Sequence record: NC_054915.1
Length of the DNA stretch: 64,000 bases
Strand: one strand, 5' to 3'
Source: Escherichia phage vB_EcoM_G8
Part shown: piece after piece, positions 22,698 through 63,410 of the stretch
Numbering within the stretch: the first letter of the stretch is position 1
How the letters are laid out: each line of letters begins with the position of its first letter
Notes under the pieces: generated by a model
What the model saw: the letters and a program-made list of their open reading frames with translations, nothing else
The model's database searches: none
What the model was told of the DNA's origin: nothing
Made by a program: the position numbers and the translations under genes

Positions 22698-22774
22698 TCA
22701 TTTTTTCCATAGGCATCATTATATTTTCCTCACTGGTTAAAGATAGAGTAATTATAACACAATAAATTTAGGCA

Positions 22775-23623
22775 TTAATCAACTGCTATTGGATGAATAG
22801 CATTAAACTTATGAAATGCTTCTGATTTTTCTTTACGCGAAACACACATGCGAAGAACCTTTAATGGCTCGTCTTCTTCACCCAACGATTTTCGTTTTTC
22901 AATATTCGATGTTTTCCAACGAGCTTGCTCTGGAAACTCTCTATTAATCTGCTCAAGCGCTCTATTATGTTTAGAATTACTACGAATTGAACTGCACCCG
23001 CCAGGAGCTTGTGCTTTTCCAGATACAACTAGATATTTGAACAAGGCCAAATGCGGATAACCTTGATTAATTAAATTGAGAAATGCATACATATCTTCGC
23101 ATAAATCAATTTTTCCATACCCAATTTGTTCTGTCGTAAGTTTTCCGAGGTCATACCACGTATTCGTGAATCCATATGAGTTTTCACGATAATTACCCCA
23201 AGATGAAGTAATTTTAAAAATTGGTAGACGAGCATGGCCATGATAATACCCGCAATCCATGGCATCCTCAACGTATTGAATCAATTCATAGAACTGTTCA
23301 CGAGTTAATTGATTAATTTTATCTACGCGCCGTTTATCGTCTCTCTTTCGTATTGAACTCATACGAATAGTAGTATCATCATCAATCATCCAGATTCGTT
23401 GACCTGCATACATATCAGTAATTGCTTTACGAGTACCGGCAATTCCATTAACATCATCAGGAATAGCTATAATTTTAGCTCTAGACCCATAAGCATCATA
23501 ATAAGCTTTTTCTTCATGTTCACGCACTACAATATGGGGTTCATAATCAGTCGGAAACATATTAAGGGCAGAAACTGCCCCGACGCGCTGATAACTTGGA
23601 ATTACGAATTGAATCATTTCCAC
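22775..23623 (-). CDS. GT-A fold glycosyltransferase at the beta-gt locus (candidate T2/T6-type beta-glucosyl-HMC-alpha-glucosyltransferase)
   Basis: 282-aa ORF; VIPSYQR and DDD (DxD) motifs; sits between uvsX and gene 42 where T4 has 351-aa beta-gt. Confidence 0.65.
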   Translation of the reverse strand: MEMIQFVIPSYQRVGAVSALNMFPTDYEPHIVVREHEEKAYYDAYGSRAKIIAIPDDVNGIAGTRKAITDMYAGQRIWMIDDDTTIRMSSIRKRDDKRRVDKINQLTREQFYELIQYVEDAMDCGYYHGHARLPIFKITSSWGNYRENSYGFTNTWYDLGKLTTEQIGYGKIDLCEDMYAFLNLINQGYPHLALFKYLVVSGKAQAPGGCSSIRSNSKHNRALEQINREFPEQARWKTSNIEKRKSLGEEDEPLKVLRMCVSRKEKSEAFHKFNAIHPIAVD

Positions 23624-24354
23624 TCACCGTTATAATCTTTTTTCACAATATGAGTTTCGCCAGTATTCCACCAATGATCAACCAAGTAAAAATGACGAGA
23701 ATATACATGAAGACTTCCAACATTCCATATAATAGAACCTGCTTTATACTGACGAGTTGAATCGCCGGCATTCAAATCAGATACTAATTTATCTAATACG
23801 TATTTTTGCCATGCATAATCATTACGGAATCCGAAGACCACGTCATTTGAGCGCATGCTTACTACTGCATTGACTTTCTTATCACGAATCAGATACTGTA
23901 CTGTATTAGTACACATGAAATCTGACATGCCATCTTTATTATAGTCAAACTGCATAGATGGACGAGTATAAATCATGATACCACGTCGAGAATCAGGATT
24001 TTGACCAAGTTCAGCTAAACACATATCATACTGGGCATAGTTATCTTCTGACCAGATAGCCCAACCATAATTCGAGTTAATTTCGCCTTTAGAAGATGCT
24101 ACTTGCTGCCAAATCTTCGGTGTTTCACCCGGAATATCTTTAACGAACAAGCTCTTAGATTTATACCATTCAAGTTCACGCTGAATGTATTCATCATTAA
24201 GAGCGCCAAAAATAAACGGTTCATCTGCTACAAATGATGCGCCAATAATTTCAATAGTTTTAACACCAGTTTTATCAACTACGAAATCTTTTTCCTTTAA
24301 TGCAGTTCCCAAATGAAGACGGATTTCTTCAACTGTCATAGAGTCACTAATCAT
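23614..24354 (-). CDS. 42: dCMP hydroxymethylase gp42
   Basis: 246-aa ORF; thymidylate-synthase-like fold motifs; T4 gp42 length. Confidence 0.93.
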   Translation of the reverse strand: MISDSMTVEEIRLHLGTALKEKDFVVDKTGVKTIEIIGASFVADEPFIFGALNDEYIQRELEWYKSKSLFVKDIPGETPKIWQQVASSKGEINSNYGWAIWSEDNYAQYDMCLAELGQNPDSRRGIMIYTRPSMQFDYNKDGMSDFMCTNTVQYLIRDKKVNAVVSMRSNDVVFGFRNDYAWQKYVLDKLVSDLNAGDSTRQYKAGSIIWNVGSLHVYSRHFYLVDHWWNTGETHIVKKDYNGEWK

Positions 24355-25157: not shown

Positions 25158-25406
25158 TCAAATGCAAGTAGTAATTACTCCAGTAGTGCTTATGCAGGTA
25201 TTACCTAATTGAACACCCAGCGTTCCATTAGTATTCATATGAAGATTATCATCAATTTTTGTTGATACTTTACCATTCATGTGAATAACAGTATTAGATT
25301 CAATCACATTCTGAGTATCATTTTCAATATCAATAAATGGAACAGCTGCTAATGCAACTAAACAAACTGCTAAGCATCCCATAACAATTTTCATTTTATT
25401 CTCCAA
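25158..25406 (-). CDS. small secreted protein (signal peptide); true start probably M5 MKIVMG
   Basis: 82-aa track ORF; GGAG RBS lies inside first codons; downstream of early promoter. Confidence 0.55.
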   Translation of the reverse strand: MENKMKIVMGCLAVCLVALAAVPFIDIENDTQNVIESNTVIHMNGKVSTKIDDNLHMNTNGTLGVQLGNTCISTTGVITTCI

Positions 25407-25428
25407 ATCCGTATTAGTTGATAGTTGT

Positions 25429-25458
25429 ATAGTACCATAGAAGAACAGGGATGTAAAC
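25429..25458 (-). promoter_or_regulatory. T4-type early promoter within repeated promoter cassette
   Basis: plus strand gttgatagttgtatagtaccat...gtaaac. Confidence 0.65.
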
Positions 25459-25545
25459 AGTTTTGTGAAAAATTTTTAGGGAATCCAAAGGGTCCAGAAT
25501 CATCTCTTTTTCATAAGTATAGATTTATATTACTTGTATGAAAAA

Positions 25546-25561
25546 GGGACCTGGAGGTCCC
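25546..25561 (-). terminator. intrinsic terminator downstream of gene 43 (GC stem gggacc/ggtccc followed by U5 on minus strand)
   Basis: plus strand aaaaa-gggacc-tgga-ggtccc. Confidence 0.6.
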
Positions 25562-25574
25562 TAGATTTATTCTA

Positions 25575-28271
25575 TCAGCCAAACAGGAAGTCTAACGAAG
25601 CTTTTTCTTCATAGTCCATGCCAGCCGATTCACACATACCCGCAAGCGGTTTAACAAACGATTTTTGGAACAAAGTTGAGTGGTCAATCCAAGATAGTAC
25701 ATCAGAACGAATTTCTTTTGGAAGTTCTGTACCCGACGGCCAAGCAATGCACTTGTCACCAAATGGATTTCCTTCACGTAATGGAAGAACCATTACTTTA
25801 TTTCCATCCAAAATTGGAGCTACACCCAGACCACTAACAGCTCGACGATAAGTTAGCACCCCACGAATGTGGAACGGGCATTTAAATCCTGGCCAACCTT
25901 TATCATCATATTTCGCTATATCGTTCGCAGTTTTTACTTCAGCAATAACTTTATAGTCAAGTTGACGATATTCTTTCTCGAAGTTCTTGTAATATTCTTG
26001 GACAGACTCTTCACCTTCCTGAAGAATACGACGAATACTTTCTTCGAGAGCTTCTTGCACTGCTTTTGGTGTTGAACTCTGCTGAGTTTCCATACCCATG
26101 ATTTTTAGATGCGGTTCAGCAAATCGTTTATCTTCCATATCATAAACGTTCAGAGCATAACGCTTTTTCGCTTTCCAAAATCCACCTACGCCCTTTGAAC
26201 CAAGCGGAGGGCAAGAAATAGCTTCACGGTCCATATGCATCAGATGCTCGCGGTTATTCATATAATCACATAACTCACGATATGCAACATCAATCATAGG
26301 TTCCATCTTTTTCTTACCGAACTGATTCATGAATTCAACTAAATCGTTCTGCTCTTTGAATCGGTCAAGACCAACTTTTTCAATAACTTTATCTACGCAA
26401 ACATATACCGAATCAGTATCACCTGCTGCGATGAAATCTTCACCGTTAGTTCCGCATACTTTATTCAGATATTCATTAATTTTACGAGCAATCCACTGAA
26501 TACCGACTTGACCAAAAATTGTGATAGCAGTAGCATTTCGCAAATCATAGTAACGGAAATGAATATTACCAAGAGCACCATAAAGACTGTTAATAAGAAT
26601 TTTACGGTTCAGCTGATTTGTGTTAGCAAGTGTAGCTGCTTTTTCACATTCCTCAATCAGACTATTGAGAACAGATTCAGTATAATTCGATAGTTCATTT
26701 AAGAAATCATCACTGAACTTAACATATCGTTCAACTTCTGGTTTAGTTGAACAAGACCCTGCGCCTTTCATAATAATCTTTTTAATAGCTTCGGCATTCA
26801 TTTCTTCAGCGAACATTTTCTTTTTCCAGTCTTTACGCTGGAAAAATACTTTAGCAATTTCCTTTGGAATGATACCTTCTTGATGCTTATCATACATCCA
26901 TCCATTCGGAGAACAAGAATATTCATCACTCGGTTTAGGAGCTGTTCCTGCGATATATTCATGAATTGGATGAACTTTAAACTGACCACGAATAGTTTCA
27001 GGACTAATGTTAACCTGGCGAATAATGCTCGGATACAGAGAAGTCAAGTCAAAACTCATAATGTATCGACGAGCAATTGGCTTAGGTTCAAACACAAATG
27101 CACCCGGAAAACTCTGTTTAACATGCGAACCTTGTTGAGGAATAACCTTATGTTCACCTTTCAATGAGTTAAAAATAATAGCATCCCAAGTTTTAATAGG
27201 ACTCATTACACCAGAAAAAGGCATTTTAGCATAATAAGACATACTTAAAACTAGATCGATAAACCCGCGAATTTTATCAATTGCTTGAACTGATTCTACG
27301 TCAATGATGTTATAACTAATGTATCGTTGATGATTAGTCTCACGAAGTTTATTAATAGGACCGTCGTATGGTAATTTACCTTTTTTGGTTTCATGTTGAG
27401 CAACTGATTCCAAAGAGAATGACGGCAAATTAGTAAAAGCGAATTTCTTGTACAAATCTAAATAATCAAGAATAGATACGCCATCAATAGAATAAATTTC
27501 TTTGCTACCGTACATATTTTGAATTAGTTTAGATTTTACCCGACCGATTGGAGAGAAACGTTTCATACTGCGTTCGCCCAGAATCATTTTAACACGATTC
27601 ATGATATACGGAACGTCAAACCCCTCAATATTCCAACCAGTAAAAATAGCAGGTCGTTTCTGTTCCCAGAGATTGATATATTCCATGAGCATATCACGCT
27701 CATTATCGAATGGCATATAAATTACTCGGTCAAGAATTTCTTGAGGAACTTCATCACCACCTTCACAGTCAAGCTTAGCAGCTAACTTTGCATCCCATTT
27801 TGATACTGAACCATACATTGAATTCAAAAGGTCGAAAACATAAAAACGATCGTCAATTGAATCGTAATGAGTGATAGCATCAATTTCATATTCAGCTTTC
27901 ATTGGGTCAGGAAATTTATCACCAGTAACCTCAATGTCACAGTTAGCTACACGAACAAATTTTCGGTCATAAACAATTTCTGAACCATACGTATCACTGA
28001 TATAAGCGAGTTTAAAATCGTTCATACCGAGAGCTTCGAGACCGATGTCTTCCATTCGCTTCATCCAATCTCGAGCATCTTTCATTGATGGAAATTTTTG
28101 AGGAGCGCAATTTTTACCATAAATGTCTTTGTATTTTGACTCTTCCTTACAATGCCTAAACATAGTTGGAAGATATTCTACTTCACGAGTACGTTCCTTT
28201 CCGTTTTCATCAATATAACGTTCAACAATGTTATTTCCGACTGTTTCGATAGAGATATAAAATTCTTTCAT
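25575..28271 (-). CDS. 43: DNA polymerase gp43 (family B)
   Basis: 898-aa ORF, T4 gp43 length; exonuclease and polymerase motifs (DTDS, YGG). Confidence 0.97.
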   Translation of the reverse strand: MKEFYISIETVGNNIVERYIDENGKERTREVEYLPTMFRHCKEESKYKDIYGKNCAPQKFPSMKDARDWMKRMEDIGLEALGMNDFKLAYISDTYGSEIVYDRKFVRVANCDIEVTGDKFPDPMKAEYEIDAITHYDSIDDRFYVFDLLNSMYGSVSKWDAKLAAKLDCEGGDEVPQEILDRVIYMPFDNERDMLMEYINLWEQKRPAIFTGWNIEGFDVPYIMNRVKMILGERSMKRFSPIGRVKSKLIQNMYGSKEIYSIDGVSILDYLDLYKKFAFTNLPSFSLESVAQHETKKGKLPYDGPINKLRETNHQRYISYNIIDVESVQAIDKIRGFIDLVLSMSYYAKMPFSGVMSPIKTWDAIIFNSLKGEHKVIPQQGSHVKQSFPGAFVFEPKPIARRYIMSFDLTSLYPSIIRQVNISPETIRGQFKVHPIHEYIAGTAPKPSDEYSCSPNGWMYDKHQEGIIPKEIAKVFFQRKDWKKKMFAEEMNAEAIKKIIMKGAGSCSTKPEVERYVKFSDDFLNELSNYTESVLNSLIEECEKAATLANTNQLNRKILINSLYGALGNIHFRYYDLRNATAITIFGQVGIQWIARKINEYLNKVCGTNGEDFIAAGDTDSVYVCVDKVIEKVGLDRFKEQNDLVEFMNQFGKKKMEPMIDVAYRELCDYMNNREHLMHMDREAISCPPLGSKGVGGFWKAKKRYALNVYDMEDKRFAEPHLKIMGMETQQSSTPKAVQEALEESIRRILQEGEESVQEYYKNFEKEYRQLDYKVIAEVKTANDIAKYDDKGWPGFKCPFHIRGVLTYRRAVSGLGVAPILDGNKVMVLPLREGNPFGDKCIAWPSGTELPKEIRSDVLSWIDHSTLFQKSFVKPLAGMCESAGMDYEEKASLDFLFG

Positions 28272-28274
28272 AGA

Positions 28275-28309
28275 TATTCCTTAGTTTATAGCCCGAGTTA
28301 TTAGGCTCT
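28275..28309 (-). promoter_or_regulatory. gene 43 translational operator (hairpin plus adjacent RBS region bound by gp43)
   Basis: minus strand reads AAGAGCCUAAUAACUCGGGCUAUAAACUAAGGAAUAUCUAUG, matching remembered T4 operator. Confidence 0.7.
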
Positions 28310-28331
28310 TGATATATTATACTCCAAATAA

Positions 28332-28345
28332 GGGGCCGAAGCCCC
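28332..28345 (-). promoter_or_regulatory. C(UUCG)G stem-loop between regA and gene 43, followed by ttggagTATAAT
   Basis: plus strand ggggc-cgaa-gcccc. Confidence 0.55.
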
Positions 28346-28349
28346 TTGC

Positions 28350-28718
28350 TTAATTACCAATCGTATATTTAGGAACGAGTTTCCATTCATGTTTTTGTTT
28401 AAAAGAAATAACTCGGAAGTTATTAGTTAAATCTTTCATAAAAGTTCTTTGACCAGGAACGATTTCAATCAGTCCCCAATCTTCTAACAACCATGCAATC
28501 GAATCACGACGAACTTCATCTTCTTCTGTCATTTCAACTTGGCGACCATCCATACGAAGCATTTCTTTAAAATGAACGATATAGTATAGTCCTTTTTTCT
28601 GAAGAATATGACAGGACTGATACAGAACTTTATCTTTATTATTAGCAATTCCCATACGAGTCAAAGTTTCTTTTACTTTCAGAAAATCTTCAGGTTTTTT
28701 AAGAGTAATTTCAATCAT
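28350..28718 (-). CDS. regA: RegA translational repressor
   Basis: 122-aa ORF, T4 RegA length and position. Confidence 0.9.
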   Translation of the reverse strand: MIEITLKKPEDFLKVKETLTRMGIANNKDKVLYQSCHILQKKGLYYIVHFKEMLRMDGRQVEMTEEDEVRRDSIAWLLEDWGLIEIVPGQRTFMKDLTNNFRVISFKQKHEWKLVPKYTIGN

Positions 28719-28719
28719 T

Positions 28720-29283
28720 TTACCATTCCAATGCTAGTTTTTTGAGTTGTTTCTGTTCTTTTACGTTCTTAGTCACTTCTTTCAAAAAATCATCCGTGAC
28801 TAAACCTTTAAGTTCTTTTAATACTAAAGGAAGTTTTCCATTTTTAGTAAGAATTGATTTATAGTTAATTGCATCATTTGTATTAACTTGATACCGCTTA
28901 GCAAGTAACTTAATAATCAATACTTCGGTGGAATCTTCAACTAGTTTTGCCCATTTACCATATCTTTTACCACGAGGAACTGCAGCCATTAGATAATTAA
29001 AATGAGCTTCATCACTTAAGCCTGATCCAATTAAATTCATAGCATATACAGCTGGCATGCACTCTGGAAATTGTGATAATGCATTTTCAACCATGAATTT
29101 TGAATAATCTTTTTGAGCAATAGAGCATTTAGTTTTATTATTAATAGCTCCAATTATTTCAAAAAATTCATTTTCAGCTTTTTCTTTAAAAGTATCAGCA
29201 GCAGATTGGACAGCTGTCCAATCTTTAGAATACCAAGCAACTTGATGCTCGTTTAATTGAATATCATCTTCAAATAAGCTCAT
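28720..29283 (-). CDS. 62: clamp loader subunit gp62
   Basis: start set at internal MSLFEDD (187 aa, T4 gp62 length). Confidence 0.85.
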
Positions 29284-29284
29284 A

Positions 29285-30244
29285 TCACTTCCACTGCATT
29301 TCACATGCTAATTGAATGAAAAGATAAGCTAAATGCAATTCAGTATTAGCTGCAATACCATGATACTGATTATTTTCGCCGACAATTTCGTACATACGAA
29401 TAATACTCTGTGGAGTTACACGTGAATAGATTTCTTCGGCAAGTTTACCTACGAACCACGAATAATCGGCTGCATATTTTGGTGCTAAAGCTCTGAGTTG
29501 TTTAACATCTTTATTTTTGAGAGACTCAAGAACATCATCAATAGCACCACGATCGTTAGTAACCAGTGATAAAATACCAGCATCCAAAACACCTTTAGAT
29601 GAATAACTATCGAGCTCGCCAATAGTTTTACGAAAATCAGGAAAATTCTTTTTAACCAAAGCTGCTACAACTTTCATATCAGCTATAGCAATACCTTCAT
29701 GTTTACAGATTTCGGTCAACCGACGAATCATCTGCTTCATCATTTCAATTTTATCTTCATCGGTCGGTTGACCGAATGTGATAACTCGGCAGCGTGACTG
29801 AAGCGGTTTAATAATACCATCAATATTGTTAGCAGTAATAATAATACTACAGTTTGAGCTGTAAGCTTCCATAAAGGAACGAAGATGTCGCTGAGATTCT
29901 GCTAAACCTGAACGGTCAAATTCATCAATAACGATTACTTTTTGACGACCATCAAATGAAGCGGCGCTGGCAAAATTAGTCAAAGGACCACGAACGAAAT
30001 CAATTTTACAATCTGAACCATTCACAAACATCATATCAGCATTTACATCATGACACAATGCTTTTGCTACAGTTGTTTTACCTGTTCCTGGAGAAGGAGA
30101 ATGAAGAATAATATGTGGAATCTTACCTTTACTTGTAATAGATTTAAAGGTTTCTTTATCAAAGGCGGGAAGAATACATTCATCGATAGTAGATGGACGA
30201 TATTTCTGTTCAAGAATGTGTTCTTTTTCATTTACGGTAATCAT
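29285..30244 (-). CDS. 44: clamp loader ATPase gp44 (AAA+)
   Basis: start set at MITVNEKEH (319 aa); Walker A GTGKTT. Confidence 0.93.
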
Positions 30245-30275
30245 AATTTCCTCATTCAAGTTTTAGTGTAAATTA

Positions 30276-30295
30276 TAGAGGGCCGAAGCCCTCTA
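30276..30295 (-). promoter_or_regulatory. 8-bp C(UUCG)G stem-loop between genes 45 and 44
   Basis: plus strand tagagggc-cgaa-gccctcta. Confidence 0.55.
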
Positions 30296-30982
30296 TTAAA
30301 AATCGTGGGTAGAATCAGCTTCAAGAGCTACTACATAATTCGCGTGTTCACCTTCAAATTTAGCAGCGCCTTGTTTACCTTTTGCCCAGAGCAGAAGTTT
30401 ATAATTTCCTGGTTGCATTTTCATATTTGCCATATTGATAATGAAATTAAATGTATTTTCACCATCATAATCACCAAGAGTCAAAGAATATTTAACACGG
30501 GTCAGAGCAGAATCTTCTACTTTATTAAAACCGTTAATTACGATTTTACCTTCTTTTACCGTGATAGCAATTGTATCAATTTGCAGACCACGAGATACAC
30601 GCAACAGTTGTTGAAGGTCTTCAGCTTTAATTTCAGTAACAACAGATGCTACCGGGAATGGAATTGGTTTATTAGGAGCAACTACTGTACTCGGATCGGC
30701 TGCTGGCCAAAAAATTGTTGAGCGGGCATCAGCAATTTTAATATTTCCATCTTCTGACTGGGAAATTTCTGCATCATCATTAACTAGAGACAGAATACCG
30801 AGAAAACCATTCAAATCGTAAATTGCTACATCAAAATCAATAACGTCAGAAATATTTGCTTCCGCATAAGTTGTACCATTAACTGCGCGAGTCATAATAA
30901 ATTGACCGGATTTAAGCATAATTCCAGAGTTAATAGTAGCGAAATTTTTCAAAATATTCAGTGTATCTTTAGACAGTTTCAT
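30296..30982 (-). CDS. 45: sliding clamp gp45
   Basis: 228-aa ORF matching remembered T4 gp45. Confidence 0.95.
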   Translation of the reverse strand: MKLSKDTLNILKNFATINSGIMLKSGQFIMTRAVNGTTYAEANISDVIDFDVAIYDLNGFLGILSLVNDDAEISQSEDGNIKIADARSTIFWPAADPSTVVAPNKPIPFPVASVVTEIKAEDLQQLLRVSRGLQIDTIAITVKEGKIVINGFNKVEDSALTRVKYSLTLGDYDGENTFNFIINMANMKMQPGNYKLLLWAKGKQGAAKFEGEHANYVVALEADSTHDF

Positions 30983-31007
30983 GTAATTTCCTTCAATTCA
31001 AATGAGA

Positions 31008-31037
31008 TTTAATTTTATAACTAATTTAATAAAGCAA
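31008..31037 (-). promoter_or_regulatory. candidate MotA-dependent middle promoter for gene 45 (MotA box TTGCTTTA, -10 TATAAA)
   Basis: minus strand TAATTGCTTTAT...TATAAAAT about 25 nt upstream of gene 45 ATG. Confidence 0.5.
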
Positions 31038-31427
31038 TTAACGATTAAAATCAGCAGCAATTGTTTCCGCAACAATTTGAGCAGCAACAATTAGACGTTC
31101 ATCTGCATTACCGCAATAATCATCTTCAAGACGTTCACCGCATGAAGTCATAATAAATTTAGCACCGGCGTTTAGGGATTCTGTAGTATGTTTGCGCATT
31201 AGTTCAATCCATTTATTACTTACTTCACGATCGATAGCTTCATAATACGCATGACGAGCAGGTGCAGATTTAATTTTGTTCTGAATAACTTCCATTGCGT
31301 TATCAGAAAGAGACAAAACCCATGCTCGACGAATTTTATTTTGGTTTTGTGGATTTGATTCAGAACGCACGTGTTTTGGCTGAATATCTTTTACGTCAAC
31401 AGTATAATTCACAGTAATTTTAGTCAT
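31038..31427 (-). CDS. rpbA: RNA polymerase binding protein RpbA
   Basis: 129-aa ORF in T4 rpbA position/length. Confidence 0.75.
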
Positions 31428-31436
31428 AATACACCT

Positions 31437-31625
31437 TTAGTCATAATAATCAGTAACAGTCCAAGATTCATTTCTATTGGACATTATTTTTGTATATTCT
31501 GCTTTAAATGCATTCCTAAGCATAGATTCAGTAACTATATGCTCTTCATTAGAAAAATTATTTCTCAGAATATATCGTTTTATTTCAGGAATAGTTAATA
31601 GATGCTGTCCAGTTGAATATTCCAT
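31437..31625 (-). CDS. 45.2-like small protein
   Basis: 62-aa ORF. Confidence 0.5.
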   Translation of the reverse strand: MEYSTGQHLLTIPEIKRYILRNNFSNEEHIVTESMLRNAFKAEYTKIMSNRNESWTVTDYYD

Positions 31626-31680
31626 GTTTTTCCTCCATAGAGATTATACTCTAATAAATTAAAGCATAATCTCTTATAAA

Positions 31681-33363
31681 TTAAACCATTACAGTAAATC
31701 GACCAACTTTCTTCATTTGAAGATGCTGACCATATTCTTGCGGGTCATGGTCTTTATGCGAAATTATAAAAACATTAGTGTTTTTCATTGAATTTATAAT
31801 ATTAGCTACACCTTTAATACCTTCGGCATCAAATGACCCATCAAACACTTCATCGAGTATTAATGTACTAATACTAACACCAGATACAATAGAAGCAATA
31901 TCACGCCAAGTAAATAAAAGAGCAATATCAATTCTTGCTTTTTCACCTTCACTAAATGAAGCATAACTAAAATCTTCGCGACCACGGGATTTAATTGTCT
32001 CATTAAATTCTTCATCTAATGTAAACACATAATCCGCTTCCATTATTTTAAGATAATGGTTAATCTGCTTATTAAATAATGGAATGTACTTTTTAATAAT
32101 AGCACCTTTAATACCAGAATCTTTGAGCATATCAGTCAAAATTCCTCGGTGGTATTTTTCCATTACTAAATTAGTTTTTGTCTTAACAATTTTATCAAGT
32201 TCTTCTTGAAGCAGTGCTATTTCATCAGCATGGTCAATAAACTCAGAAGATGCTTTTTCTATAGCCGCTTTAACTTTTTTAGCTTTATCTACTGCTGCGA
32301 TCAGAGATTGCTTTTTATTGCGAATATCATTTGCCAACGACTGCTGAGTTTTAATATTATCTCGGTATTCATCAACAAGAACTTTTAAATTATCACGATG
32401 TGTTGAAAGCTGTTCAAACGAATGCGTGCATTCAGAAACTTTATCTTTAATTTTAGAAACAACTTTATCACCGGAACTCAATTGTGACAAACAGGTTGGA
32501 CATAATCCACCTTCGTGATACATATTAATGACTTTATTATACGAGTCAATTTTTGATTTAATTAAAACTGCTTCTTGACCGATTTTATTAAATGCATCAG
32601 TCGGGTCTTCATCTAAAACAATATTAACTAATCTTTCATTAGCTTCTTCTATTTCCGATTTTAGCGTTCTAGCTTCTTTTGCCAAATCATCATACATATT
32701 TTGCAGACGAGTAAGGTTGTCACCAGTTAATTTTTTCTGGCGTTCAACATTATCATTATATATTTTAATTTGTTGGATAATACTATCTTTTTTAACATCA
32801 AGCACTTGGTTTTGTGAATTTAATTCACGTATTAGTGCTTTATTAAGCTTATCCATTTCAGCTAATGTTCCTACCTCAAGCAGGTCTTCCACAAGCTTTC
32901 TTCGTGCAGGGGTCGACAAACCCATGAAAGGGGTATACCCTGCTGTACCAAGGACAACAATCTGCTTGAAACTGGCATATGACATTCCGATAAGCTGTTC
33001 AAATTCTGCTTGGAAATCTTTACTGCTGGCAGATTCATTAAGACGTGTACCGTTAACGGTGATTTCAAAAACGTTCGGTTTTTGTCCTCTTTTGATATAG
33101 TACTTTTTCTCATCATATTCCATCCACAGTTCAACTAAAAGTTCTTTCTTATTTGTGCTGTTTATTAATTGACCTTTCTTTACATCACGAAATGGCTTGC
33201 CAAAAAGCCCAAATGTGATGGCTTCTAACATAGTAGACTTACCACCGCCATTTCGGCCAGTAATAAGAGTTTTTTGAACCTTATCTAATTGAATGTCAAT
33301 CCCATTTTGACCAACTGACATTATATTTTTATATTTTACTCTATTAAGTTTAAAATTCTTCAC
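31681..33363 (-). CDS. 46: recombination endonuclease subunit gp46 (Rad50/SbcC-like ATPase)
   Basis: 560-aa ORF; Walker A GRNGGGKST, coiled-coil middle, signature/Walker B at C-terminus. Confidence 0.95.
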   Translation of the reverse strand: MKNFKLNRVKYKNIMSVGQNGIDIQLDKVQKTLITGRNGGGKSTMLEAITFGLFGKPFRDVKKGQLINSTNKKELLVELWMEYDEKKYYIKRGQKPNVFEITVNGTRLNESASSKDFQAEFEQLIGMSYASFKQIVVLGTAGYTPFMGLSTPARRKLVEDLLEVGTLAEMDKLNKALIRELNSQNQVLDVKKDSIIQQIKIYNDNVERQKKLTGDNLTRLQNMYDDLAKEARTLKSEIEEANERLVNIVLDEDPTDAFNKIGQEAVLIKSKIDSYNKVINMYHEGGLCPTCLSQLSSGDKVVSKIKDKVSECTHSFEQLSTHRDNLKVLVDEYRDNIKTQQSLANDIRNKKQSLIAAVDKAKKVKAAIEKASSEFIDHADEIALLQEELDKIVKTKTNLVMEKYHRGILTDMLKDSGIKGAIIKKYIPLFNKQINHYLKIMEADYVFTLDEEFNETIKSRGREDFSYASFSEGEKARIDIALLFTWRDIASIVSGVSISTLILDEVFDGSFDAEGIKGVANIINSMKNTNVFIISHKDHDPQEYGQHLQMKKVGRFTVMV

Positions 33364-33623
33364 AAAAGATTCCTTTTAATGTATCTTTTAGACCATTCTA
33401 TCATATCATCATAATCTAAAAAGTATTCATCAAATTCAGCCATGCAAACAACACCTTGTGCTGCTTTTGATGTGATATAAATTATTCCAACATATCTAGA
33501 ATCTTCTTCGGTATAATCAATATTTGCTATGAATTCATCATTAATGTCAAATGTCGAAAACTTCACAGTATGCATCCTTAATACAAGATACAGCCATATC
33601 TCGTAATGATTTAGGCGTGTCAT
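33360..33623 (-). CDS. 46.1-like small protein
   Basis: 87-aa ORF. Confidence 0.5.
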   Translation of the reverse strand: MTRLNHYEIWLYLVLRMHTVKFSTFDINDEFIANIDYTEEDSRYVGIIYITSKAAQGVVCMAEFDEYFLDYDDMIEWSKRYIKRNLL

Positions 33624-33810
33624 TATCTAAAATGTTGAAGTTAAAAGATACAGCCCAGTCAGTGCAGACTGTAACCTTTTTAATACAATTATCTTCAACC
33701 TCTAGTGGTTCAAACCAATATTCAATAATTTCTTTATGACCAATATCATCTTTTACTTCACATTCAAAATGCTGACTCATCACAACATTTTTAAATTCAT
33801 CAAAAGTCAT
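33547..33810 (-). CDS. 46.2-like small protein
   Basis: 87-aa ORF (overlaps 46.1 ORF in another frame; one of the two may be shorter). Confidence 0.45.
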   Translation of the reverse strand: MTFDEFKNVVMSQHFECEVKDDIGHKEIIEYWFEPLEVEDNCIKKVTVCTDWAVSFNFNILDNDTPKSLRDMAVSCIKDAYCEVFDI

Positions 33811-34826
33811 TGTGTTGCCTCTACATATAGCTGATTTGCATATTGAATAAGTGCTTCACGGTCAGAATCAGTGATGTCTGGAATTGCATTAATATACTCT
33901 TCCATCAACGTCTGAAGAGATTGAACTTCAACTTCTTCACTGTCATCTGACTCGACAGAGTTATCAATTTTTGACACAACTCGTAATGAATGCACAACTT
34001 TTTCTAGTTCAGATTCGAACTTCGTCAGATTTTTGTCTACCTCAGTTACTATAACACGTACTGATAGATTTGTAAAATCTTTATAGTCAATTTTTCCTTT
34101 AAATGGATAATGAATTCTACGATGCCAGGTAGTATTGTTTGGAATAAATTCCATTCGTTCTGTTTCTGTATCAAACATCCAGAACCCACGAGGGTCATTC
34201 TCGTCACCTGCAGTTAGTGTCCATGGTGTCCCAATATATCTGACGTTAGCAGCCTCAGAGATAGTATGGAAGTGACCAGACCACACTTCTTTATAAGTCT
34301 TAAGGAAATCAGGTTCAAGACCATGAGATTTCATTCCTTTATAAAAATAAAATCCGTTCAGTTCCCAGTGACCAACGCAAAAAGAAGCAGATGAAGTTTT
34401 GATGTGTTCAAGAATTTCACCAGTATTTTCTTCACACATCCAAGGAATTAAATCAATTAAACATCCGTCAAAATCTACTGTAGTAGGCTTATCATATACT
34501 TTAACATTAGGATATTTAGCCAAAAGCTCAGTAGAGGCATTTGGATGCATTACATTTTTGTAGTGGAGATCGTGATTTCCTACAATAGTATGTAATGTGA
34601 TTCCAGCATCATCAAGCATTTGAACTATTTCGCGAGCGAACTCCATAGTTTTATGCGTGATTGCTTTTCGCACATCAAAAATATCGCCGTATTGAATCCA
34701 TGTAGTAATTCCATTTTTCTTAGAATATTCTATTGCTTGTTTAATTCCATCAATTTGAATACCGCGAATCCACTCATCATCAGCTTTAACGCCTAAATGC
34801 CAATCACCTAAATTTAAAATTTTCAT
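33807..34826 (-). CDS. 47: recombination nuclease subunit gp47 (Mre11/SbcD-like)
   Basis: 339-aa ORF; calcineurin-like phosphoesterase motifs (GDWH, GNHD). Confidence 0.95.
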   Translation of the reverse strand: MKILNLGDWHLGVKADDEWIRGIQIDGIKQAIEYSKKNGITTWIQYGDIFDVRKAITHKTMEFAREIVQMLDDAGITLHTIVGNHDLHYKNVMHPNASTELLAKYPNVKVYDKPTTVDFDGCLIDLIPWMCEENTGEILEHIKTSSASFCVGHWELNGFYFYKGMKSHGLEPDFLKTYKEVWSGHFHTISEAANVRYIGTPWTLTAGDENDPRGFWMFDTETERMEFIPNNTTWHRRIHYPFKGKIDYKDFTNLSVRVIVTEVDKNLTKFESELEKVVHSLRVVSKIDNSVESDDSEEVEVQSLQTLMEEYINAIPDITDSDREALIQYANQLYVEATQ

Positions 34827-34986
34827 ATATCAAGAACCGTCATTGAAATGCAAAATAAAATTATTGAAATAAATCCATCTGGAGTGCTAAAGAACCCAAT
34901 CCAACATGCTTTAGTGAATAGATAAAATGCAAGAAAAAGTATCACATATCCAAGAAATATCATTATATCAAACTCCGTATAAAGCT

Positions 34987-35004
34987 AAAGGGCCGAAGCC
35001 CTTT
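34987..35004 (-). promoter_or_regulatory. C(UUCG)G stem-loop downstream of agt
   Basis: plus strand aaagggc-cgaa-gcccttt; same flanks as the 4317 copy. Confidence 0.55.
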
Positions 35005-36205
35005 ATTTTGTAATAATGTCAAACTGTTCTTTAAAGCAGAAGCTTGAATCTTGATGCTGATACAAAAATTCATAAGCTTTTTCGCGTTCACGGTCATAAA
35101 GAGTTCGGTCAGATGACAGTTCTTTAATACGCTCGAATGTTGATTCCATGTCATTTTCATCAAACCAAATGATACCGCTATCATGCGAGGTCAAAGGAGT
35201 ATTATCAACACGGAATTTTAAATTTTCGCCAGTAGATTTCCAAAATACCGGAATTGTTCCACATGCACCAAGCTCGAGATGAGTATATTCTAAAGAGCGC
35301 TGTAGATATTTTTTATCCAACTTACTCAACTGATAACCAAATCCGGATTTACTCATGCGTTCAAGCATTTCGCTATTTACATAACGGTCAAGAATTTGCG
35401 TTGGCAAATTAGGAGCAATTTTAATTTGGTCTACTTGATGAAGACGATAATACTCGTATGGAATTCCTTTTTCTTTAATAGGAATGAACGCTGGAGAACG
35501 TTCCAGACCTTCCATAATAGTACTTAGTCCTGCAGGTTTAAGATGTTTTTCATGAAAATCAAACATCTGATAAAAACCTTTCCATGTAGTCGTACGACCA
35601 ATCCAACGGTTGATATTCATGTTAATTTCAGAAACATCTTTCCAGTAGGTTGATCGAACCTTCGCAATATCCATAGGAGGCTGAAAGTTGTATACAGTCG
35701 GTGCTTCTTCAATATCATCAAACAGAGAAACTGTTTCTGGATACCATTCTTTCATCAGAACTTTATTAAAATCGCCATTATCAGAATGACTAAAAATAAC
35801 ATCAGCTCGACGAACAGTTTCTTCTAATCCCAAATTTCGGCGCAAAGAAAGAGAAGAATGGTCATGTTGATAAACTACAACACGAACCGAAGGTTTAATG
35901 TTATCAATAATTTTTTTATAGTTATTAATAGTGTCTTCTTCAACTGAAGTAGCAGGAACTGAATTGATAATTAGAATATCACAATCATTTACCAGCTTAA
36001 GTGTTTTATCGTATTCTTTTGCCAATAAAACCGGAATTGAAAATGATTTATAATCATGCGCACAGTTACGAGTAAATGATTTATCTTTAGCATAAACCAA
36101 AGTTACTTCATGACCATTTTTAATAAACCAATCACGCTGCTCAAGAGAAAATTTAGTTACACCGCAACCTTCAAGACCCCGAGCCATAAAAATGCAAATA
36201 CGCAT
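35003..36205 (-). CDS. agt: DNA alpha-glucosyltransferase
   Basis: start set at MRICIFMARGLEGCG (400 aa) matching remembered T4 alpha-gt. Confidence 0.9.
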   Translation of the reverse strand: MRICIFMARGLEGCGVTKFSLEQRDWFIKNGHEVTLVYAKDKSFTRNCAHDYKSFSIPVLLAKEYDKTLKLVNDCDILIINSVPATSVEEDTINNYKKIIDNIKPSVRVVVYQHDHSSLSLRRNLGLEETVRRADVIFSHSDNGDFNKVLMKEWYPETVSLFDDIEEAPTVYNFQPPMDIAKVRSTYWKDVSEINMNINRWIGRTTTWKGFYQMFDFHEKHLKPAGLSTIMEGLERSPAFIPIKEKGIPYEYYRLHQVDQIKIAPNLPTQILDRYVNSEMLERMSKSGFGYQLSKLDKKYLQRSLEYTHLELGACGTIPVFWKSTGENLKFRVDNTPLTSHDSGIIWFDENDMESTFERIKELSSDRTLYDREREKAYEFLYQHQDSSFCFKEQFDIITK

Positions 36206-36263
36206 AGTTTTCCTCTTTTCATTCAATAAATCATGTAAATAATATTTTATTTTCTATAAAACG

Positions 36264-37058
36264 CTACGAATAGGCCCAAACATATCCATAAGCAATTTTG
36301 CTTTTTCCAGATATGCACTTTTTAATATTAGACATGCATCCTTTAACGGATACAGCTGCGTCTTTAATTTTAGGAAATACTCGTAATAATTTTCCAGTAG
36401 TATCATATTGAAATACTGGCACATTTCTTTTCTGAGTTATCCCACGTTTAGATTTAGACATTTTTTGTTTAGTTGCATTAGACATCCTAGAGGGCTTTCC
36501 TATGTTATCAGAATAATAATATTTCCATTGAAATCCTCCAGCGGTTTTCCTTTTCCCATCTACACATTGTTTAATTGAACTTGAACAGCTATATGACATA
36601 TCTTCTGCAGCATCTGTAATACATCTATATTTGCGAATAAAATTTCCATTTAAATCATATTGATAAATTGGTTTTCCAGCATTTCGTCTAGCGTTAGACA
36701 TGTATTTTTTATTATCATCATCTTTCCAGAACTCTTTCATGCCTTCCGATATTGAGGAAGATACGGCTGTTTTAATCCATCCATACATTTTATTATTTAG
36801 TCTTGTTCCGTCAGAACTATAACACATCATACGAATAGCTAAAGCCAATTTAGGAAGTCTATAAATTTTAAATAATAATAAATGCGCGGTAAAATGTTCT
36901 TCTGGTGTCAAAAGAACTAAATTAGTTTTATCATCTGTACCACCCATACATCTAGGAATTATATGATGAGTTTCAGTATAGTATGTTAAAAGACTTTTAT
37001 CATTGCCTCTGTTTAGTCCTTTTTCGATCAGTAAATTATATATGTTTAAATAATTCAT
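36264..37058 (-). CDS. HNH homing endonuclease with tandem NUMOD-like DNA-binding repeats
   Basis: 264-aa ORF; HNH core HHIIPRCMGGTDDKTNLVLLTPEEH; two repeats of ...QYD..G..+..+.+I.DAA... Confidence 0.8.
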   Translation of the reverse strand: MNYLNIYNLLIEKGLNRGNDKSLLTYYTETHHIIPRCMGGTDDKTNLVLLTPEEHFTAHLLLFKIYRLPKLALAIRMMCYSSDGTRLNNKMYGWIKTAVSSSISEGMKEFWKDDDNKKYMSNARRNAGKPIYQYDLNGNFIRKYRCITDAAEDMSYSCSSSIKQCVDGKRKTAGGFQWKYYYSDNIGKPSRMSNATKQKMSKSKRGITQKRNVPVFQYDTTGKLLRVFPKIKDAAVSVKGCMSNIKKCISGKSKIAYGYVWAYS

Positions 37059-37091
37059 TTTAATTATTTTACCAAAAATTTATAAAGCAAT

Positions 37092-37111
37092 ATAGGAGCC
37101 GAAACTCCTAT
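37092..37111 (-). promoter_or_regulatory. stem-loop upstream of HNH endonuclease gene
   Basis: plus strand ataggag-ccgaaa-ctcctat. Confidence 0.4.
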
Positions 37112-37284
37112 CCGCATAATACGCCATACAAAGGCTCGTTAGAGCTTCTAAATTTTATACGCTTATATGTTATAGTTCCTTCTGCTTTAGCTTTATCATG
37201 AGACTCTTTAAAGCGTCTCATCATTTCTACTTTAGAGGAACGAATTTTATTATAATCTATTTCAGAAGTTTGGGTGTTCATCTT

Positions 37285-37491
37285 TCACAGTTGCCACCAA
37301 TTTTTGACTTGATAAGAATCAACCCACACTTTCATATTAGGGTCTGCTCTTACAATAGGAGGATTAACTTCTTTAATTGAACTATCATGGTATTCTTTTT
37401 CAGAAATTTTCACACAAAGATGACCATTCAAAGATTCAGTAAATCCTGCATTAATTTTAAGACGCTTGAATTTTACGTGTGTAAGCATCAA
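37285..37491 (-). CDS. hypothetical small protein
   Basis: 68-aa ORF. Confidence 0.4.
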   Translation of the reverse strand: MMLTHVKFKRLKINAGFTESLNGHLCVKISEKEYHDSSIKEVNPPIVRADPNMKVWVDSYQVKNWWQL

Positions 37492-37774
37492 TCATATCCT
37501 CAATCTGCGATCTAGTAGTCTTCCAAAGAATACTGATGAGTTCATCGTTATATGGCTGTTTTAGAATATCCCGACTTTTCTTGATAGCATATTCGTATTG
37601 AGCAAAATTATTATTTTCAGCTGCAATCTGAGCGTGCTTATAAAGACGATTCAGTTCGCGTTTGTTTTTAGACAATAACTTATTTGCTTTTCTTTCTGCT
37701 TCAAGACGGTTCTTTTCTTCAATAGAAGAAATAAGCTTTTCCACTTCATCATTAATTTCGGGTTTATCAGTCAT
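37457..37774 (-). CDS. hypothetical protein
   Basis: 105-aa ORF. Confidence 0.5.
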   Translation of the reverse strand: MTDKPEINDEVEKLISSIEEKNRLEAERKANKLLSKNKRELNRLYKHAQIAAENNNFAQYEYAIKKSRDILKQPYNDELISILWKTTRSQIEDMIDAYTRKIQAS

Positions 37775-37775
37775 A

Positions 37776-38021
37776 TTATTTCTCTAATATAAAATAAAAA
37801 TCATCATCTGTTAAATGATACCGATAGTTTAATTCTACACCATTAGATTTAAAAGCGGTATCATACGGATTTTCTGGATCAATATCAATGTCAAGAGCTA
37901 AAACTTCCCTGAGATACATTTTAAGTAAATAGGGAATAGCTTCAACTTCAGGTATTTCTTCCAAGAATCCGGAGAGGTTAATCGTTAGCCTCATATAAAA
38001 AATCCAAACTAGGAGAATCAT
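37776..38021 (-). CDS. hypothetical small protein
   Basis: 81-aa ORF. Confidence 0.45.
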
Positions 38022-38535
38022 CTACAACACTTTTCTTTTCAGCCCCCGGTGTTCTATAGGTTGATTCTTCGTAATGCGTCATTTTATCGTAGATGTCTTG
38101 AATAAAAGTTTCATCTACTAACGCAACCATATCGTCGTCACGACTGTCATAGACATTGTGAACGAAGTAACTATATTTCTTTGCAACTTCCTTACGTTCT
38201 TTTTTAATACGTTGGACGAATGCATTAAAACAAGCTTGAGTTATATACGCATGTGGGTTTTTATATTTCGTTTCATCAAAATTATGAAGCCCCTTAATAG
38301 AAGCTTCTATACCATCTGCAATCATTTCTTGTTTCCAAGACTGGGTGTATCCTGAAAAGTTGAAACGTTTAGATAAGCCTTCTGCAATAAGCATAATGGC
38401 TAATCCGATAGTATCATTCTGACGAACTACTTTATTTGGGTCTTTATTATTTGCTAATTCTGTTTTCCAATCAATAATAGCCTGTAAAAGCTCTTTATTG
38501 TTTACGTAATTATATTTAGGCTTAGTTTCTGACAT
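37978..38535 (-). CDS. 55: late-transcription sigma factor gp55
   Basis: start set at [23 protein letters not shown] (185 aa), matching remembered T4 gp55. Confidence 0.95.
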
Positions 38536-38613
38536 TTTCACCTCTTAGCTCAATTCATAGATCTATTATATCATAATATTTGAAGATCTATCTTAAAGCA
38601 TAGAGGATATCAG

Positions 38614-38883
38614 TTATCTAAGTAAGCAGTATGCTTGGAACACTTTCTCCATCATCTTTTTAAATTCATGAATATCTATGTAATGATCATTAATATCAGC
38701 GCGATATAAAAAGTCTAAAAACTTTTTATGGGTATTAGAATATTTACTTCCAGTTAATTCAGAAACATGGCTTTCCCAATATCCAACACCAGTTTTATTT
38801 GGGAAAAATGAAATTTTCATGTATTGGTCAACATAGAAAATACCAAAATTTTCAATAGCAATAGAAATATTAATTAATTTCAT
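38614..38883 (-). CDS. hypothetical protein (55.x series)
   Basis: 89-aa ORF. Confidence 0.5.
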   Translation of the reverse strand: MKLINISIAIENFGIFYVDQYMKISFFPNKTGVGYWESHVSELTGSKYSNTHKKFLDFLYRADINDHYIDIHEFKKMMEKVFQAYCLLR

Positions 38884-40438: not shown

Positions 40439-40762
40439 TTAATCTTCTATGATATCTCTATCATATCCAAGTGAAATGAGAGTTTCTTTGAAGTGTTTAA
40501 TGTTCTTTTGTCTAGAATCATTAATGAAAATGACTGGATAACGAATGTTAAGAGATGTGAATCCAGCGCGTTTAGCAAGAGATACAATCAGTGGACGATC
40601 ATACTCAATCTTACCGTTATTTGTAAGAACTTTATAGAAAGTAAAAGGAGCATTGAGCTCCTTTAGAAGTTTTGTAACTGATTGACATCCAGGACAACGA
40701 CCTACTTCATCTGGAATTCCATAGACTTCAATCTTATTCTTTAAGTTCGAGTTTTGTTCCAC
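40439..40762 (-). CDS. nrdH: NrdH-like glutaredoxin; start uncertain (possibly GTG at about 40762)
   Basis: C-terminal about 95 aa of track ORF has glutaredoxin CPGC motif; N-terminal part of the 150-aa track ORF is low-complexity and overlaps a better ORF in another frame. Confidence 0.55.
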   Translation of the reverse strand: MEQNSNLKNKIEVYGIPDEVGRCPGCQSVTKLLKELNAPFTFYKVLTNNGKIEYDRPLIVSLAKRAGFTSLNIRYPVIFINDSRQKNIKHFKETLISLGYDRDIIED

Positions 40763-41045
40763 GAGAAATAATTCCTTGGTAAGCCCAATAAGGAGGATTA
40801 ACAGAATCCTCACCAGAGTTTTCTTCAGGAAAATAAACCTGGATAACAAATCCAGACGCATCAAAGGTAAAATAAACCGTAGGTAGTTCACCTAACAATT
40901 CGGCACGAGTATTAATTTCTTCGAGATCTCGTTCACGTCCAGCCCAAAAACTAGGATTTAGACTACATTCGTAAAAATAATAGTCATTACCGAACATATC
41001 AAAACCCTTCCAACTCTCTACCACATACCGCTCAAAACTAATCAT
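40734..41045 (-). CDS. hypothetical protein
   Basis: 103-aa ORF. Confidence 0.55.
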   Translation of the reverse strand: MISFERYVVESWKGFDMFGNDYYFYECSLNPSFWAGRERDLEEINTRAELLGELPTVYFTFDASGFVIQVYFPEENSGEDSVNPPYWAYQGIISRGTKLELKE

Positions 41046-44152: not shown

Positions 44153-44696
44153 ACGTTAACTCATAAGCTTGGAATGCATCGTATACGTCTTTTTCTGTTT
44201 TAGATTGAGCATAATTCAACGCATCAGCGATTTGCCATTTTTCTGCATCCTCAATATGTTTTGCATAGGTGCGTTTAACATAAGGAGAAAGTACTTTATC
44301 TACATTCGCAAATGTAGTTCCGCCATACTGGTGTGAAGCAACTTGTGCAGTAATTTGTGCCATAATTGCAGTAGCAACACCAATCGATTTAGGCGTTTCA
44401 ATTTGAGCATTGCCTAATTTAAATCCGTTCTCAAGCATCCCCTTTAAATCGACTAAACAGCAATTAGTAAAAGGCAATGATATACTGTAATCTAAATCAT
44501 GAAAATGAATTAATCCAACATTATGGGCATTTACAATATGACTTGGAAGAATACGACAAGCGATATGTTTAGAAACAATACCGGCCATTAAATCTCTTTT
44601 TGTTGGAAAGACGCGAGAATCTTTGTTGGCGTTTTCTGTATTTAATTCTTTATCTTTATTTGAAATAAAATTTAAAACATCTTTTTCTAAAGACAT
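44153..44696 (-). CDS. nrdD: anaerobic ribonucleotide reductase NrdD, exon 1
   Basis: 181 codons from MSLEKDVLNF... to ...AYELT before the inferred 5' splice site. Confidence 0.85.
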
Positions 44697-45508
44697 AATT
44701 CTAATTTATCCTTTTGAAATTCTTCGTCTAAATATGGGTTCCAACCCATTTTAAACCTTTTGATGAAATTATCAATTCTAAATTTCGGTAAGTTTAAATC
44801 CACAAAAATAGATGATTTACTTTTAAAATCTGGACTTAAATAATCATATAAAATTTCTGCGTATTTTAACCATAATATACAAGTACCAGATTTAATTGCT
44901 CTCGGAGTTTTCCAAGGTTTTACACCATACATCGGATTTCCACTTCCTTTATGCCTGATAGAAGATGAAATTCCAATTTTAATTTTAGCTTCCTTTGTAT
45001 GCGAAAATCCACGATGTGGATTTTCTTTCCAGTATTTTTTAGAAGCTTCTGATATTTTCTTTCTGGCTAAATTAGTATGATGCTTTCCATAAAATCCATG
45101 ATTTTTGCCTTTATTACGATTTCTTTTAATCATGGTTATTGATTGCTTTTCTCTAGTTTCTTTAGAAGGAGAAACACCGTACGTTGTAAATTGACCATCA
45201 GCATATGCTAAATTAAAATACTCTTTATTCCATATATCTTTTTCTATATTCTTTTGAAATTCAGCTTCAATGCTAGTTATTTGCTCATCTCCGACTAATT
45301 GAAAATATAATATTTCAACTTTCGGCGTTTCTTTCAACAGGGCTTTTTGAAATTCGGAAGATGACGAAGACGAATAATAAAATTTACCATTTTTATCAAT
45401 AATATTCGTTCCGTCAAAAGTGCAATTAGTTTTACTTCCAATGTAATAATATGGCGGGGTTTTAGCATTAATTCTATTAATAAATGATAGTTTATATACT
45501 ACATTCAT
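44687..45508 (-). CDS. Seg-like GIY-YIG homing endonuclease with NUMOD3-like motifs
   Basis: 273-aa ORF; VYKLSFINRINAKTPPYYYIGSKT GIY-YIG module; overlaps gene 49 start side and nrdD start. Confidence 0.75.
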   Translation of the reverse strand: MNVVYKLSFINRINAKTPPYYYIGSKTNCTFDGTNIIDKNGKFYYSSSSSSEFQKALLKETPKVEILYFQLVGDEQITSIEAEFQKNIEKDIWNKEYFNLAYADGQFTTYGVSPSKETREKQSITMIKRNRNKGKNHGFYGKHHTNLARKKISEASKKYWKENPHRGFSHTKEAKIKIGISSSIRHKGSGNPMYGVKPWKTPRAIKSGTCILWLKYAEILYDYLSPDFKSKSSIFVDLNLPKFRIDNFIKRFKMGWNPYLDEEFQKDKLELCL

Positions 45509-62338: not shown

Positions 62339-62503
62339 TTCTTCTCTCTAAATTTGGGCCATTCCGTGGCGCATGAATTGTCCATTTCTGTATTTACCCA
62401 TTACCGCACTTGGGCTCGACCTTATTACAGGTTGGCGGGAATCCCTCATAGAATCATGAGGTCCAGGTTGTTCCCATTTTATTTGAATGTAAATAGGTCT
62501 GAG
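62339..62503 (-). other. GC-rich structured intergenic region (nested stem: GGGAA...CCUCAU-loop-AUGAGG...UUCCC)
   Basis: read directly; no ORF on minus strand; composition contrasts with AT-rich flanks. Confidence 0.5.
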
Positions 62504-63404: not shown

Positions 63405-63410
63405 TTTTCC

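Follow-up and report, generated by a model that had tools for sequence, protein, structure and literature searches.

The mobB gene of a T4-like phage and a candidate target of its HNH homing endonuclease at the start of a-gt

The mobB locus

An open reading frame (ORF) of 795 bp, which runs from an ATG start to a TAG stop and encodes 264 aa, occupies positions 36264..37058 on the minus strand of the 64-kb stretch of phage DNA analysed here (the window). The original prediction had placed an ORF at exactly these coordinates, between a-gt and gene 55. The ORF is real and its position holds, with four small ORFs (a-gt.2 to a-gt.5) intervening between mobB and gene 55. The genes that frame the locus are the following.

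36264..37058, minus strand: mobB coding sequence, 264 aa plus stop, from the ORF list
35003..36205, minus strand: a-gt (DNA alpha-glucosyltransferase), downstream of mobB; its first four codons are part of the cassette described below
37978..38541, minus strand: gene 55

The encoded protein is identical to MobB of phage T4 (NP_049674) at 261 of its 264 residues in a gap-free alignment, which makes the gene a T4 mobB orthologue; the three changes, from window to T4, are G106S, S160T and K230R. T4 MobB, which is also 'orf D' of entry X01804 and was once called a-gt.1, has the same length of 264 aa, the same locus and the same orientation, and T4 has the same upstream hairpin, middle promoter and recoded a-gt start as the window. 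In T4, mobB (795 bp, minus strand, 37885..38679) lies directly between a-gt and a-gt.2, and the synteny comparison of the agt-55 interval suggested with the original prediction returned this T4 order of a-gt, mobB and a-gt.2 for the window. When positions 35000-38600 were searched by megablast, 720 phage records matched. T4 (NC_000866, AF158101 and others) covered 100% of this query with 95.5% identity, and the features beneath the T4 match were a-gt, mobB, a-gt.2 to a-gt.5 and gene 55. Colinearity of the window with T4 starts at T4 coordinate 12 and spans 25381..38608 around mobB. Furthermore, a 100% identical protein was found by tblastn in Yersinia phage fPS-2, Tequatrovirus BCH953P4, Escherichia phage 215Ecol030PP, Shigella phage TB004 and UoN_LDJ77_1. 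Since protein identity, synteny and colinearity with T4 agree, the gene is T4's mobB in a close relative of T4. The phage is T4-like (genus Tequatrovirus), and both the ORF and its locus are those of T4 mobB.

Accordingly, the gene is already known. It was present as 'orf D' in the T4 entry X01804 of 1985, has belonged to the T4 sequence since then, and all T4 annotations give it a name and a class. The idea of the original prediction that T4 has no endonuclease at this place is wrong. The reading of the ORF as a new mob-like endonuclease at a site unoccupied in T4 could draw on the absence of mobB from most T4 relatives, but it is refuted by the gene that T4 itself carries there, with 99% protein identity. 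A shorter gene starting at M38, as in 'orf D*' and in the fPS-2 annotation, was also rejected. Residues 1-37, including the invariant H31 and H32, are conserved in homologues, and a start at M1 is favoured because the N-terminus from M1 onwards is conserved. No further MobB paralogues were found in the 64-kb window at E ≤ 1e-3, so that mobB stands there as the sole detectable HNH gene of the MobB-like kind.

Other differences between the window and T4 were recorded alongside. Between gene 49 and the 5′ end of nrdD the window has a 273-aa minus-strand ORF (44687..45508) at a place where T4 has nothing; the nrdD-gene 49 gap measures 869 bp in the window versus 57 bp in T4. This ORF matches NUMOD3 (5.5e-8) and, weakly, a group-I-intron-endonuclease model, and its N-terminal 'YYYIGS' looks GIY-YIG-like. 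At the same place it is annotated as 'homing endonuclease' in fPS-2, fPS-90, the Pu-Krd-SF phages and others, and full-length copies occur in 48 records. The nrdD intron region (the I-TevII site in T4) aligns continuously with T4. The topoisomerase large subunit is encoded by one uninterrupted 606-aa ORF (2447..4267, minus strand), whereas T4 has the split arrangement of gene 39, mobA, 60.1 and gene 60 with a 50-nt translational bypass; T4 2793-3911 is replaced by ~65 bp in the window, with the junction near 2782-2847. T4 segA and the beta-glucosyltransferase gene (b-gt) are absent from 22685..23632, and their place is taken by a 282-aa glycosyltransferase (22775..23623, minus strand; Pfam TAGT, 1.2e-10), which in relatives is annotated as beta-glucosyl-HMC-alpha-glucosyltransferase. 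Because of this replacement, the phage probably lacks T4's a-gt plus b-gt glucosylation pair. The T4 genes segF and mobC and the block from mobD to mobD.2a are missing as well (~14925-15412, ~41849 and ~55320). At a BLAST filter of E ≤ 1e-20 and pieces of at least 200 bp, T4 denV and ipII (T4 64939-65718) had no counterpart at their position (window 62475..62504), and the last ~900 bp of the window (63092..64000, with small ORFs at 63144..63870) had no match to T4 1-70000. Small minus-strand ORFs lacking a T4 counterpart segment were seen at 4600..4977, 25158..25406, 38614..38883, 40734..41045 and 58058..58270. One of these small ORFs, located upstream of gene 55, encodes a DUF7200 protein of 89 aa (Pfam, 5.4e-33), and as a group they resemble the differences typically seen between T-even phages in hyperplastic regions.

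Domain architecture of MobB

The protein divides into a catalytic region and a DNA-binding arm, the parts of which were delimited as follows.

36873..36989, minus strand: HNH (beta-beta-alpha-metal) catalytic core, aa 24-62, TETHHIIPRCMGGTDDKTNLVLLTPEEHFTAHLL; from Pfam, alignment and model
36513..36674, minus strand: NUMOD1 repeat 1, aa ~129-182, predicted DNA-binding module; best NUMOD1 stretch at 129-166, and model
36426..36488, minus strand: basic linker helix, aa ~191-211; sub-threshold NUMOD3 match, and model helix at 194-211
36267..36422, minus strand: NUMOD1 repeat 2, aa ~213-264; second NUMOD1 stretch, alignment to repeat 1, and model

An HNH core had been claimed in the original prediction, and the profile searches proposed with it brought up both HNH and NUMOD1 above threshold. 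For Pfam HNH (PF01844) the match covered aa 24-50 with E 1.2e-4 and exceeded the gathering score by a small margin (22.6 bits versus 21.4). MobB was then aligned with 42 homologues of 29-41% identity and one 98%-identical cluster representative from a large protein collection. Across these 43 aligned sequences E29, H31, H32, I33, P35, G40, N46, L50, E54, H55, H59, L61 and L62 were invariant, in a pattern that fits the HH...N...H...H arrangement of HNH nucleases. Careful alignment thus found the HNH histidines in place (H31, H32, H55 and H59), although their lack had been named as a point against the original prediction, and E29 and N46 add to the invariant core. Within this arrangement H32 is likely the general base and N46 the structural Asn, and H55 and H59 are likely metal ligands. 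In a sequence search of the PDB, McrA and a group II intron maturase aligned with this stretch through their HNH motifs, and in PHROGs MobB was assigned to phrog_655 'homing endonuclease' (1.6e-52).

The DNA-binding arm was recognised with larger scores. Pfam NUMOD1 (PF07453) matched in two stretches with 86.6 bits against a cut-off of 22.8 (E 9.5e-25), and I-HmuI_NUMOD-like (PF22083) matched aa 141-177 with 2e-7 (30.9 bits against 27). The NUMOD3 profile remained below threshold (14.7 bits versus 20.4, E 0.03), leaving a basic helix that is NUMOD3-like only. The two internal repeats described in the original prediction are borne out by these stretches and by an internal alignment, in which aa ~123-180 and ~209-263 share 24 of 57 positions; the alignment score of 119 was reached by none of 2000 shuffles (23.5 ± 4.6), which corresponds to a z of ~20.

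An AlphaFold2 model built on the homologue alignment had a mean pLDDT of 82.8. In the model, the beta-beta-alpha core is formed by strands 29-32 and 47-50 followed by helix 52-66, with pLDDT > 90 in this part, and more helices follow up to about residue 126 to complete the N-terminal domain. A strand-strand-helix-helix-strand module then occurs twice, at 131-180 and at 215-263, and the two are joined by a long helix (194-211) that follows a stretch of low pLDDT (184-192). The top Foldseek match of this model in the PDB was I-HmuI (PDB 1u3e), with probability 1.00, E 1.1e-3 and 169/174 columns, although the global TM was only 0.23/0.34 and the identity 14%. This low global TM is attributable to differing domain orientations and is expected for a beads-on-a-string protein that was modelled without DNA. 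I-HmuI was not found when the PDB was searched by sequence with phmmer, which retrieved only generic HNH motifs (best E 0.042). I-HmuI, from Bacillus phage SPO1, is an HNH nicking endonuclease that is encoded by an intron and has one C-terminal helix-turn-helix module, whereas the free-standing MobB has two NUMOD1 modules, and its HNH lies right at the N-terminus. An extended modular architecture of nuclease plus helix-turn-helix is probably common to both. From sequence profiles and the structure model, MobB is therefore described as an N-terminal HNH (His-Me finger) domain tethered to a C-terminal arm of two predicted NUMOD1 helix-turn-helix modules and a basic helix. Pfam, PHROG 655, the alignment, the model and the I-HmuI fold match agree in this respect with the NUMOD-type repeats and the mob-like, free-standing HNH class that the original prediction had proposed.

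Distribution of mobB and the cassette at a-gt

The presence of mobB among related phages was assessed with an empty-site probe, consisting of 321 bp from phage RB32 that comprise the a-gt 5′ end, the intergenic region and a-gt.2. A site was counted as empty when one place covered at least 80% of the probe. The probe matched 506 phage records, and the site was uninterrupted in ~476 of these; T4-type records matched the RB32 probe as two half-length places. MobB of at least 95% identity was present in only ~22 records (~4%), many of which are T4 laboratory stocks, and mobB was missing from ~95% of the relatives that retain a-gt. IMG/VR contigs with an a-gt 99-100% identical to that of the window were likewise without mobB. 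Because the IMG/VR scan with the a-gt protein yielded only 6 loci, too few for statistics, GenBank phage records were drawn on as well. Being missing from most close relatives, mobB is not the conserved T4 core gene that had been weighed against the original prediction. The next-best proteins were ~40% identical (37-42%) and adjoin nrdA; the nrdB/nrdA junction is the position of mobE (PMC2988022). These MobE-type HNH endonucleases of T-even phages resemble MobB in being free-standing with an N-terminal catalytic domain, and are most similar to it towards the N-terminus, but they differ in locus (nrdA/nrdB) and in target (nrdB). MobE has been proven to be a homing endonuclease that nicks DNA (PMC2988022). 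The occurrence of mobB is thus sporadic and confined to one fixed site, the distribution that marks homing endonuclease genes in populations.

The junctions were compared in seven genomes with mobB (window, T4, fPS-2, CJY920, 215Ecol030PP, TB004 and BCH953P4) and nine without it (RB32, C2-3, ECML-134, NIC06P2, SH7 and four IMG/VR contigs). Relative to the empty-site genomes, mobB is part of a larger cassette.

36194..37063, minus strand: mobB cassette of 870 bp, consisting of mobB, a 58-bp spacer and the recoded a-gt start
36212..36215, minus strand: new Shine-Dalgarno GAGG for a-gt, within the spacer
36194..36205, minus strand: recoded a-gt start ATG CGT ATT TGC

The cassette stands in for 34 bp that hold the a-gt ribosome-binding site, the start codon and codons 2-4. 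It reads, in transcription order, TTAAA, mobB, the 58-bp spacer with GAGG, and ATG CGT ATT TGC, after which a-gt continues with ATT TTT. Empty sites read ACCAAAACAA[A/T]GAGGATATTAA ATG AAA GTA TGT/C, followed by ATT TTT ATG GCT. As a result, the N-terminus of the a-gt protein is MRIC in mobB carriers versus MKVC in non-carriers. In 1.5 kb upstream and 1.25 kb downstream, no fixed differences linked to mobB, such as a co-conversion tract or a distant target would leave, were found among the 16 genomes, and the best difference in allele frequency between carriers and non-carriers in these flanks was 0.57. The only consistent difference between carriers and non-carriers was thus the cassette together with the 34 bp it replaces.

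Upstream of the cassette lie a promoter and a terminator-like element.

37066..37091, minus strand: middle-type promoter upstream of mobB, the putative middle-mode promoter of orf D in X01804; common to 16/16 genomes
37083..37091, minus strand: MotA-box-like ATTGCTTTA
37066..37071, minus strand: -10 TAAAAT
37092..37111, minus strand: terminator-like hairpin where a-gt.2 ends, immediately before the promoter; from a terminator scan

The -10 region reads GGTAAAATAA in the compared genomes and GATAAAATAA in BCH953P4, and in genomes lacking mobB the same promoter sequence stands before a-gt. The fPS-2 annotation gives the hairpin as a terminator and X01804 gives it as a dyad symmetry; it is present in 16/16 genomes. 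A sigma-70 promoter scan gave 14 matches versus 8.8 ± 2.4 expected in AT-rich DNA and was uninformative; our statements on promoters therefore rest on the annotation of X01804 and on the literature. According to the latter, a-gt shares a polycistronic transcript with mobB from the middle promoter (PMC13216743), and mobB has a promoter in its upstream non-coding region as well as embedded promoters for downstream genes (PMC2988022).

The leader of mobB proved to be polymorphic. In the window and T4 alleles no Shine-Dalgarno precedes mobB, the -10 box ends only 7 nt ahead of the ATG with a leader of 5-6 nt between the -10 region and the start codon, and the sequence before the ATG is TTAAA in the window versus ACTAAA in T4. 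Translation of mobB may be poor in these alleles because they lack a Shine-Dalgarno and the -10 box is so near the ATG, and such a leader fits the theme of down-regulated endonuclease expression in the review of mobile DNA elements in T4 and related phages (PMC2988022). MobB was detected by proteomics among the early-synthesised T4 nucleases (PMC9697503). The CJY920 allele of mobB (PQ349265, an UNVERIFIED record) occupies the same site and shows 95% aa identity, but its leader differs. From the promoter through ...GAGGATATTAA ATG AA it matches the empty site exactly, and mobB runs on from that ATG, so that the full empty-site a-gt leader (ACCAAAACAAAGAGGATATTAA) and start codon are retained and fused to mobB codon 2. 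The CJY920 mobB thereby has a Shine-Dalgarno, in contrast to the T4 and window alleles, which are without those ~17 nt.

Selection on the gene was estimated by the Nei-Gojobori method, with dN/dS values that rest on few substitutions.

Window versus T4 mobB: 5 synonymous, 3 nonsynonymous, dN/dS 0.15
Window versus CJY920 mobB: 17 synonymous, 13 nonsynonymous, dN/dS 0.18
T4 versus CJY920 mobB: 17 synonymous, 14 nonsynonymous, dN/dS 0.19

The mobB ORF was full length in every carrier examined. Together, the dN/dS values, the intact ORFs, the invariant catalytic residues and the detection of the protein by proteomics argue against a decaying pseudogene, and they argue for mobB encoding a functional protein under purifying selection.

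Proposed homing of mobB, its candidate target and alternative readings

The same review of mobile elements lists mobB as free-standing, of the HNH type and inserted at a-gt/a-gt.2, with activity 'ND' and target 'unknown' (PMC2988022), and we found no literature reports of MobB cleavage, nicking, homing or a target. For the related MobA and MobE, nicking of the target and over-inheritance in crosses are documented (PMC2988022). By analogy with these relatives, we infer that MobB would be catalytically active, nick a target site and home. That the gene is the T4 mobB orthologue and that MobB is a free-standing HNH homing endonuclease that presumably homes into the a-gt/a-gt.2 junction is a reading in which we have good confidence.

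The course of such homing can be outlined. During mixed infection MobB would bind a long asymmetric site in the DNA of a relative lacking mobB, via its two NUMOD1 modules and the linker helix, and the HNH domain would nick one strand there, as MobA, MobE and I-HmuI do. Recombination-dependent repair from the mobB-carrying genome would then copy the 870-bp cassette into the a-gt/a-gt.2 junction, and a-gt would be restored by the ribosome-binding site and the first codons that the cassette brings along. As judged from the junction sequences, the MobB target probably overlaps the translation-initiation region of a-gt. The a-gt start is the best candidate because it is the only consistent difference between genomes with and without mobB, there being no fixed differences in the flanks. 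It stays a candidate, since free-standing endonucleases often cut hundreds of bp away from their insertion site. In its empty-site form this candidate target reads ...TAAAATAA ACCAAAACAA[A/T]GAGGATATTAA ATG AAA GTA TGT, then ATT TTT..., and the candidate cleavage neighbourhood in empty-site DNA is ...GAGGATATTAAATGAAAGTATGT... With the replacement ribosome-binding site and the recoded codons of the cassette, a-gt would stay functional and a mobB-carrying genome would be immune. Taken as a whole, the account in which MobB is an active nicking homing endonuclease that targets the a-gt initiation region of mobB-less T-even phages, the cassette protects itself, and the lineage of T4 and the window lost the mobB Shine-Dalgarno is put forward tentatively, its chances lying somewhat short of even.

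Two other readings were weighed against it. Conceivably, mobB could be a catalytically dead or no longer mobile remnant, kept since its removal would disturb a-gt expression; such retention could be explained by the position of mobB between a-gt and its promoter and by the promoter-like elements for a-gt that it carries. Other T4 endonuclease genes are defunct, namely mobA, which is annotated as defective, and I-TevIII (PMC2988022). The 'ND' entry for MobB activity in that review would suit a remnant, as would the lack of a Shine-Dalgarno before the T4 and window mobB and the rarity of the gene, which at ~4% of records gives little sign of ongoing spread. However, mobB is full length in all carriers examined, its catalytic residues are invariant, dN/dS values of 0.15-0.19 indicate selection on the protein and not merely on the DNA, and the protein was seen in T4 proteomics (PMC9697503), so that we regard a remnant as unlikely.

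Still far less probable, to the point that we give it very little weight, is the co-option of MobB for the exclusion of competing phages' markers near a-gt or for the promotion of recombination or amplification of neighbouring anti-defence loci. This idea gains some appeal from the fact that a-gt, which adjoins mobB, is a counter-defence gene (PMC13216743), and from SegB, which was recently reported to promote the amplification of anti-defence loci (PMC13096335). Purifying selection and the early expression of MobB would also be in agreement with it. Nevertheless, the 1.5 kb upstream and 1.25 kb downstream showed no signature of co-conversion or marker exclusion, and mobB is missing from ~95% of the relatives that keep a-gt.

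For the preferred reading of MobB as a homing endonuclease, the present analysis adds two small points to what was known of mobB, namely a candidate target narrowed to ~34 bp at the a-gt start and the polymorphism of the mobB leader. The narrowed candidate target and the CJY920 allele with its ribosome-binding site ease the design of a cleavage or cross experiment. If true, the loss of the Shine-Dalgarno in the lineage of T4 and the window would damp the expression of the endonuclease.
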